Source: a virus
Lineage: Duplodnaviria > Heunggongvirae > Uroviricota > Caudoviricetes
Strand: one strand, 5' to 3'
IMG/VR virus record: IMGVR_UViG_3300043399_000700
DNA length: 64,000 nt
Shown here: positions 49,783 to 51,630 of the stretch, one piece after another
How positions within the stretch are numbered: the stretch's first letter is position 1
Layout of the letters: every line of letters begins with the position of its first letter
Notes under the pieces: generated by a model
Told to the model about the DNA's origin: nothing
Database searches by the model: none
What the model saw: the letters and a program-made list of their open reading frames with translations, nothing else
Program-made: the position numbers and the translations under genes

Positions 49783-51630
49783 ATGAAATTATTTGAAGGT
49801 GGCAACGTTTTTAAAGACTCTAAAGGCGTTCCTTTAACACAGCGTATTAATCAAACAGACGTCAAACCTACACTAATGTGGCTTGATCAATTAACACCTG
49901 GGTTAGACTTAACAAATAATATGCTAGGCTCTACAGGATTAAAACCAACTTCGGGCGACCTTGATGTTGCTGTGGACTCAAATCGAGTTAAAAAAGAAGA
50001 CCTATACAATCATTTAGTAAATTGGGCTAAGTCAAATGGCCTGAAGCCCGAAGAATGGGTGCGTAAGTCTGGTACTAGCGTACACTTTAAAACACCAATT
50101 ACTGGACGTCCAGATCGAGGTTTTGTACAAACAGACTTTATGTTTTTACAAAACGTTCCATTTAGCAAGTTTATTTTACGCAGCGACCCTAATAGTGAAT
50201 ACAAAGGTGCACTACGCAACATAATGATTAACTCAATGGCCAAGGCCATGGGTTATAAGTTAAATCAATTAGCGGGCTTACAAGACCGCGCTACCAACGA
50301 CGTTATTACCGATAACCCAGATGAAGTTGCAAAGATACTATTAAACAAAAATGCTACTGCTGCTGACTTAGCGTCAGTAGAAAAGATTTTAGCAGCCCTA
50401 CAAAAAGACCCCCAACGTGAGCAAAAGATTGCCGACTTTAGAGCACACATGGCACGTGATGGCATTCCATTTAACGAAAGCCTAGAAGAAAACGAAGTTA
50501 GTTTTATTGCACGCCTACGTGATCGTATTGTTAATCAAGGCATGCAACCCATTTACGAAGGTGTGCGCATTGAACACCCCGAAGACATGGTGTTTGATCA
50601 AGGCTCTAAGGGTATTAGCAATGCTGTTCGTGGCATTGTTAGTGCTGCTAAGAACCCACAGACAACCACGGTTAAATGGGATGGTAAGCCTGCTATTATA
50701 TTTGGACGTAATCCCAGTGGTCAATTTGTATTAACTGATAAATCAGGATTTTTAAGCAAGAGTTACAATGGCCTAGCCACAAGCCCAGGTGAAATTGAAC
50801 GTATTATGCGAGCACGTGGCGGCGAGCGCGACGAATTAATTGGCATTTATCAAAAGTTATTTCCTTTATTAGAAGCAGCAGTACCTCGTGACTTCCGCGG
50901 TTACATTCAAGGCGACTTGCTATACACACAAACTCCGCAGGTTGTTAACGGACATTATGTGTTTACTCCTAACACAGTTACATACTCTGTGGATGCTAGC
51001 AGCCCATTGGGACAAAAGATCAAAGGCTCACAGGCTGCTGTAGCTATTCACACAGCACTAGCAGCACCGGGCGCACCAGCACAGCCAATTACCACTGCTA
51101 GTTTAAATGATGTGCCTGGATTATTAATCGTTGATCCAAGTTTAAAAGAACCACGTAAAATTAAAATTGATCAAAACAAAGTCAAAGACCTAAACACAGT
51201 TGTTCAACAATTTGGACGCGATATTGATCAATTGTTTAATCCACAGGAATTACGTGCTCGCAAAATTAGCAATATGCCTGCGCTAATGAAAACATATATT
51301 AATACTCGTGTACGTCAAGGCAATTACTCGAATATCATCGGTGGATTTACTGAGTGGGTTAAACACAAAGAGCCTACCAAAGCACCGCGTATTTTAGAGT
51401 GGATGGGTCAAAATCGTCAAGGCGTTGTAGCACTATTCCAAGCGTTCTTAGAACTAAGTGCACTAAAAAATGAAATAGTACGCCAACTAGATGCACAGGC
51501 ACACGATGTAAAAGCCAGCATTAACAACGAGCCCGGGCACGAAGGCTATGTAGGGCAGGGTATGAAGTTTGTTGATCGCATGCGCTTTAGCCAAGCAAAC
51601 TTTGCTAAAAATAACCCTAACTTAAAGTAA
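49783..51630 (+). CDS. Two-domain nucleotidyltransferase: N-terminal Pol-beta-type NTase motif plus a central ligase/capping-enzyme-like KxDG motif
   Basis: GSTGLKPTSGDLDVAVD = [GS]-x8-D-h-D-h, the Pol-beta superfamily signature. TTTVKWDGKPAIIFGRNPSGQFVLTDKSG at about residue 293 resembles motif I of the ATP-dependent ligases (K-x-D-G...ii....G..v..sR.G). Confidence 0.4.
   Translation: MKLFEGGNVFKDSKGVPLTQRINQTDVKPTLMWLDQLTPGLDLTNNMLGSTGLKPTSGDLDVAVDSNRVKKEDLYNHLVNWAKSNGLKPEEWVRKSGTSVHFKTPITGRPDRGFVQTDFMFLQNVPFSKFILRSDPNSEYKGALRNIMINSMAKAMGYKLNQLAGLQDRATNDVITDNPDEVAKILLNKNATAADLASVEKILAALQKDPQREQKIADFRAHMARDGIPFNESLEENEVSFIARLRDRIVNQGMQPIYEGVRIEHPEDMVFDQGSKGISNAVRGIVSAAKNPQTTTVKWDGKPAIIFGRNPSGQFVLTDKSGFLSKSYNGLATSPGEIERIMRARGGERDELIGIYQKLFPLLEAAVPRDFRGYIQGDLLYTQTPQVVNGHYVFTPNTVTYSVDASSPLGQKIKGSQAAVAIHTALAAPGAPAQPITTASLNDVPGLLIVDPSLKEPRKIKIDQNKVKDLNTVVQQFGRDIDQLFNPQELRARKISNMPALMKTYINTRVRQGNYSNIIGGFTEWVKHKEPTKAPRILEWMGQNRQGVVALFQAFLELSALKNEIVRQLDAQAHDVKASINNEPGHEGYVGQGMKFVDRMRFSQANFAKNNPNLK

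Follow-up and report, generated by a model that had tools for sequence, protein, structure and literature searches.

A phage protein joining a polymerase X-like domain to a ligase-like DUF6267 domain, with a possible role in filling gaps and sealing nicks

Pol X of ASFV (174 aa) has neither the 8-kDa nor the helix-hairpin-helix subdomain. ASFV Pol X and the ASFV DNA ligase, which has an OB fold, are separate proteins. In Phaeocystis globosa virus 16T, by contrast, PgVPolX is a fusion of PolX and an NAD+ ligase, and experimentally it fills a BER gap and seals the nick (PMC5537341). Its PolX core is full, including an 8-kDa dRP-lyase domain, and its ligase is of the LigA type. In bacterial LigD (ligase, polymerase and phosphoesterase), likewise, one polypeptide both fills ends, with a polymerase that favours rNTPs, and seals them, with a ligase that favours 3'-ribo nicks (as cited in PMC5397189). 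In phages, RlaP, a Pol-beta-superfamily transferase linked to Rnl or RtcB ligases, adds one or two NMPs to damaged RNA (PMC7824862, PMC12776372); RlaP and the ligase are separate genes within RNA-repair operons.

The window (the whole 64-kb stretch of DNA that was analysed, from a large uncultured phage) contains a gene which, like that for PgVPolX, places a Pol-beta-type polymerase core and a ligase, both predicted, at the N- and C-terminal ends of one chain in a large dsDNA virus. The ORF has an ATG start, a TAA stop and a Shine-Dalgarno-like AAGGA 6 nt upstream. More than 4000 metagenomic proteins are homologous at E<=1e-3; among the 120 matches listed, identity to the 615-aa protein is 64-98% over 99-100% of the query. 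No record has exactly the sequence of the window protein. The ORF is a real gene. Its features, and those of the upstream replication genes, are as follows.

44839..47921, + strand: Toprim primase (44839-45828), an unassigned ORF and DnaB-type helicase (46527-47921), all upstream of the fusion within its gene block (Pfam, PHROG)
49783..51630, + strand: complete ORF of 615 aa with two domains, PolX-like then DUF6267 ligase-like
49783..50481, + strand: N-domain (aa 1-233), predicted Pol-beta fold with a palm and a second subdomain, resembling family X polymerases
49795..49812, + strand: N-terminal motif E5-G-G-N-x-F10, 87-96% conserved in 128 diverse N-domains
49927..49974, + strand: G49-S50-x8-D59-L-D61, predicted nucleotide-binding loop and two metal-binding aspartates (motif, conservation)
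50125..50145, + strand: strand V-Q116-T-D118-F-M-F with the predicted third catalytic aspartate (Q116 100%, D118 99% conserved)
50482..50565, + strand: interdomain linker (aa 234-261; pLDDT 34-48)
50566..51627, + strand: C-domain (aa 262-615), DUF6267 by Pfam, with the predicted adenylyltransferase fold of ligases and lacking an OB domain
50569..50586, + strand: family-specific motif I-E-H265-P-E267-D268, where the long helix that opens the C-domain begins (H265, E267 and D268 100% conserved)
50668..50709, + strand: motif I, T-V-K298-W-D300-G301…G308-R (K298, D300, G301 and G308 invariant in 42 DUF6267 domains)
50899..50985, + strand: candidate motifs III (G373-Y-I-Q-G-D378-L-L) and IIIa (F394-x-P-N-x-x-x-Y401), placed solely from the order of the motifs and the position of the strands
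51172..51492, + strand: insert (aa 464-570) separating motifs IIIa and IV, all helical by secondary structure (K562 100% conserved)
51529..51591, + strand: motif IV (E587-G588-Y-V) and motif V-like strand (K595-F-V597-D-R599-M-R-F602), with invariant residues

The structure model divides the protein into two domains with a low-confidence linker between them. The linker holds a basic helix (A243-RLRDRIVNQG) which is invariant in the close family and is not kept in distant fusions. Elsewhere the PolX-like domain and DUF6267 are fused in both orders: among 150 representatives at 50% identity, 47 have the N-then-C order and four the reverse.

The initial annotation had read GS-x8-DLDVAV in the N-terminal region, and the motif is there exactly, as G49-S50-x8-D59-L-D61-V-A-V. 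We take this pattern to resemble the GS-x8-GDMD of Pol beta. It agrees with the signature of Pol-beta-like nucleotidyltransferases, hG[GS]-x(7-13)-Dh[DE]h, and the third carboxylate (D118) is present on a later strand. Conservation was assessed in 128 N-domain representatives, 29-64% identical to the window N-domain and including stand-alone proteins; G49, D59 and D118 are each conserved in 99% and D61 in 100%. The predicted structure has the palm fold of the superfamily, and the palm and C-terminal nucleotide-selection subdomain of family X superpose on it as one unit. The 8-kDa (dRP lyase/5'-phosphate-binding) domain and the helix-hairpin-helix subdomain are absent; since only ~45 residues precede the GS loop, there is no room for them.

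Kinship to PolX is seen in the modelled fold and is not significant by sequence. The N-domain has no match at E<=10 in Pfam, DNA_pol_B_palm and DNA_pol_B_thumb included, and PDB-sequence searches with full-length and diverse N-domain profiles found no PolX. Similarity to ASFV Pol X is not significant either (hhalign E 0.16, region YKLNQ..GL), the ASFV sequence used being approximate. One divergent member of 41 distant relatives matched PF14792 (DNA_pol_B_palm) at 1.1e-5. The 1116 clusters at 50% identity that carry this domain, which has no Pfam model, define a large polymerase X-like family.

The lack of the usual PolX DNA-binding subdomains would suit a ligase whose N-terminal accessory domain is catalytically silent and serves solely to bind another protein or the ends of nucleic acids; so would the fact that DUF6267 does without the N-domain in cyanophages. 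Conservation of the three carboxylates and the GS loop at 99-100% in 128 divergent members argues instead for catalysis by the N-domain, and a silent domain is very improbable.

The C-domain scores 157 bits with PF19782 (DUF6267), whose gathering cut-off is 27, and its residues 263-609 correspond to model positions 4-374 of 376. A ligase-like motif I and a following VLTDKSG had been placed about 200 residues after the first motif, with K293 as the lysine. Both are present downstream (V297-K298-W-D-G-K-P-A-I-I-F-G-R-N, nt 50668-50709, and V316-L-T-D-K-S-G), but the lysine is K298, 237 residues after D61. K298 is predicted to be the AMP-accepting lysine; with D300, G301 and G308 it is invariant in a set of 42 divergent DUF6267 domains (28-54% identical). 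Among DUF6267 domains, D378 is conserved in 88%, F394 in 92% and Y401 in 100%, and E587, G588, K595, V597, R599 and F602 are invariant. The motif V-like K595-x-V-x-R599 is thus invariant, but it is not KxK. The I-E-H265-P-E267-D268 motif may bind a metal or the leaving group. In many cyanophage homologues the match extends over ~290 codons only, as against ~385 in the long forms.

The C-domain model is of high confidence, and the top 19 matches in a structure search with it are all ligases. RNA ligases (Rnl5, REL1, Rnl2) match best, Rnl5 first; DNA ligases score nearly as high. The predicted structure has the adenylyltransferase domain fold of covalent nucleotidyltransferases. An OB domain with motif VI is absent, as the chain stops 20 residues past K595; DNA ligases nearly always have an OB domain. 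The protein matches neither the Pfam ligase families (DNA_ligase_A_M/A_C) nor any Pfam or NCBIfam model for LigA (domain Ia, DNA_ligase_aden). PDB-sequence searches with the protein, its full-length profile and a diverse C-domain profile gave chance matches only, so the relationships of both domains are visible by fold alone. DUF6267 is 7-13% identical to the nick-sealing RNA ligases Rnl5 (Naegleria/Deinococcus) and Rnl2/REL1, with no sequence-profile match. It differs from them by the invariant H-x-E-D, the 107-aa helical insert and K-x-V-x-R in place of the K-x-K of motif V.

The proposed fusion of a Pol-beta-fold nucleotidyltransferase with a ligase-like covalent nucleotidyltransferase is thus borne out by predicted folds of the expected superfamilies and by conservation of both signatures. 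The initial annotation did not know the combination from characterised T4-type proteins. It is indeed absent from T4, but PgVPolX is a characterised precedent outside phages (PMC5537341). PgVPolX has a full PolX core and a LigA-type ligase. In the phage protein the polymerase part consists of the palm and second subdomain alone, and the ligase, DUF6267, matches no Pfam ligase family. The best reading is that the phage fusion is analogous to PgVPolX but was assembled from different families. It is one chain, unlike the ASFV pair. The LigD polymerase has the archaeo-eukaryotic primase fold and the phage N-domain a Pol-beta fold; the LigD ligase is a canonical ATP-dependent enzyme with an OB domain, which DUF6267 lacks.

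In the window and in relatives the gene order is primase, DnaB, radical SAM and then the fusion gene, and the order from primase to fusion recurs in relatives on contigs of ~295 kb and ~350 kb. DUF6267 in Kyanoviridae and in DLP6 lies within the gp43-uvsX-gp41…gp61 replication module, and the stand-alone N-domain of Atu_ph07 is downstream of a primase/helicase gene. A comparison of the window with the loci of Atu_ph07, PA5oct, cyanophages and DLP6 found no shared neighbours.

This setting bears on the earlier suggestion of tRNA repair against anticodon nucleases, which survives as a rival in an unfavourable genomic context. Like RlaP, the N-domain would restore 3' nucleotides that a cleaved tRNA or other RNA has lost, and the Rnl-type C-domain would reseal that RNA, countering host anticodon nucleases. 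The association of RlaP with RNA ligases speaks for it. The HAD-phosphatase-like and Nudix domains of some relatives could heal ends, and DLP6 has DUF6267 besides a DNA ligase, together with ~30 tRNA genes. However, the N-domain has no match to the RlaP model (PF10127) at E<=10; it is structurally PolX-like, with a second subdomain of the templated-polymerase type. The conserved neighbours are replisome genes, in contrast to the RNA-repair operons of RlaP; neither beside the fusion gene nor elsewhere in the 64-kb window was a gene found for a polynucleotide kinase, for a 2H or other phosphoesterase, for RtcB or for a tRNA. The near-equal scores of DNA ligases also weigh against RNA repair, which is rather unlikely overall.

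Computationally we observe two folds whose catalytic residues are invariant, a fusion that occurs in either order and a neighbourhood of replication genes; together these point to a bifunctional break-repair enzyme that fills a gap in a nucleic acid and then seals the nick. This explanation has about an even chance of being right; we infer the activities themselves, how they are coupled, whether DNA or RNA is the substrate and whether ATP or NAD+ donates the AMP. The N-domain would be a minimal family X-type polymerase, consisting, as ASFV Pol X does, of just the palm and nucleotide-selection subdomains, in which D59, D61 and D118 would add one or a few nucleotides to the 3'-OH at a gap or recessed end. 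DUF6267 would be the ligase, which would adenylylate itself on K298, pass the AMP to the 5'-phosphate and seal the nick; the flexible linker could allow both active sites to act on the same lesion. The favoured substrate would be the phage's own DNA, either in Okazaki-fragment or gap maturation or in BER- or NHEJ-like repair of nicked DNA, and the sealed 3' end may contain a ribonucleotide. In Shuman's 'ribo-patch' model, a repair polymerase is paired with an Rnl5-type ligase (PMC5397189). Counting against the fill-and-seal explanation are the RNA ligases as best matches, the missing OB domain, the N-domain without 8-kDa lyase and helix-hairpin-helix, and the PolX sequence similarity that is not significant. 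The initial annotation's 'divergent ligase with accessory domain' and 'repair enzyme' both fit this evidence.

Cyanomyoviruses have no recognised DNA ligase, an apparent absence that has been noted since 2005 (PMC1079782, PMC2984593, PMC7824862). DUF6267 is without assigned function despite its presence in thousands of metagenomic phage proteins and in 346 phage records, nearly all of them T4-like cyanophages (marine cyanomyoviruses). Homologues of T4 gp30 are found in 2645 records, and Synechococcus phages are not among the ten commonest names there. DUF6267 is not simply a gp30 substitute, because DLP6 has a canonical gp30-like ligase as well as DUF6267; this counts against a mere replacement replicative ligase, and a strict 'gp30 replacement' reading was downgraded. 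It is possible, if doubtful, that the DNA ligase long sought in T4-like cyanophages and many uncultured jumbo phages is DUF6267, that the fusion is a single-chain fill-and-seal module for replisome or repair, and that the AMP perhaps comes from NAD+ regenerated by a conserved NMNAT-like neighbour. With the ligase fold, the invariant motifs, the replication-module site and the repeated PolX-type fusion, the missing-ligase question can now be tested at the bench. A compact polymerase-ligase could serve as a reagent; if RNA-specific, it would represent a new family of RNA ligases that carry their own polymerase for restoring ends.

Other partner domains are not explained by fill-and-seal. The commonest third partner, a HIGH-motif adenylyltransferase with weak similarity to NMNAT/PPAT, accompanies the N-domain in 16 of 41 long relatives. 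Nudix, the Thoeris inhibitor Tad3 and ART-PolyVal each occur in single relatives, and some relatives have a HAD-phosphatase-like domain (DMDGV motif, NT5C). These partners would suit an anti-defence or nucleotide-metabolite enzyme, possibly delivered with the virion, in which both transferases and the NMNAT-like partner would act on NAD+/ADP-ribose-type or signalling nucleotides and not on polynucleotides. The PA5oct N-domain homologue carries an annotation as a virion protein that comes from mass spectrometry, and two nearby ORFs in the window match 'virion structural protein' PHROGs. Yet both domains are structurally closest to enzymes that work on the ends of polynucleotides, the HIGH-domain matches are far under every family cut-off, polyvalent-type fusions need not mean a common pathway, and no partner gene of this kind was found near the fusion gene in the window. 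Such a role is improbable, and the 'nucleotide-signal-modifying enzyme' first suggested is the weakest of the three functional readings then offered. A CTP_transf_like ORF in the window (27457-28218) was rejected as the HIGH-domain partner; it is cupin-fused and of the sugar-nucleotide type, and only the HIGH-motif region is common to both.

Cyanophages reportedly have a stand-alone 'ligase DNA-binding-domain-like' protein, described by Iyer et al. (P-SSM2 AAX44695.1); it is not DUF6267 and was not found in the window. A hidden N-domain in the gene upstream of cyanophage DUF6267 was undetectable in P-TIM40_181, and with local HMMs none was detectable upstream of DUF6267 in Melnitz, S-RSM4 or DLP6. 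In Atu_ph07, the gene upstream of the N-domain has weak similarity to DUF6267 (BLASTP E 6e-4).

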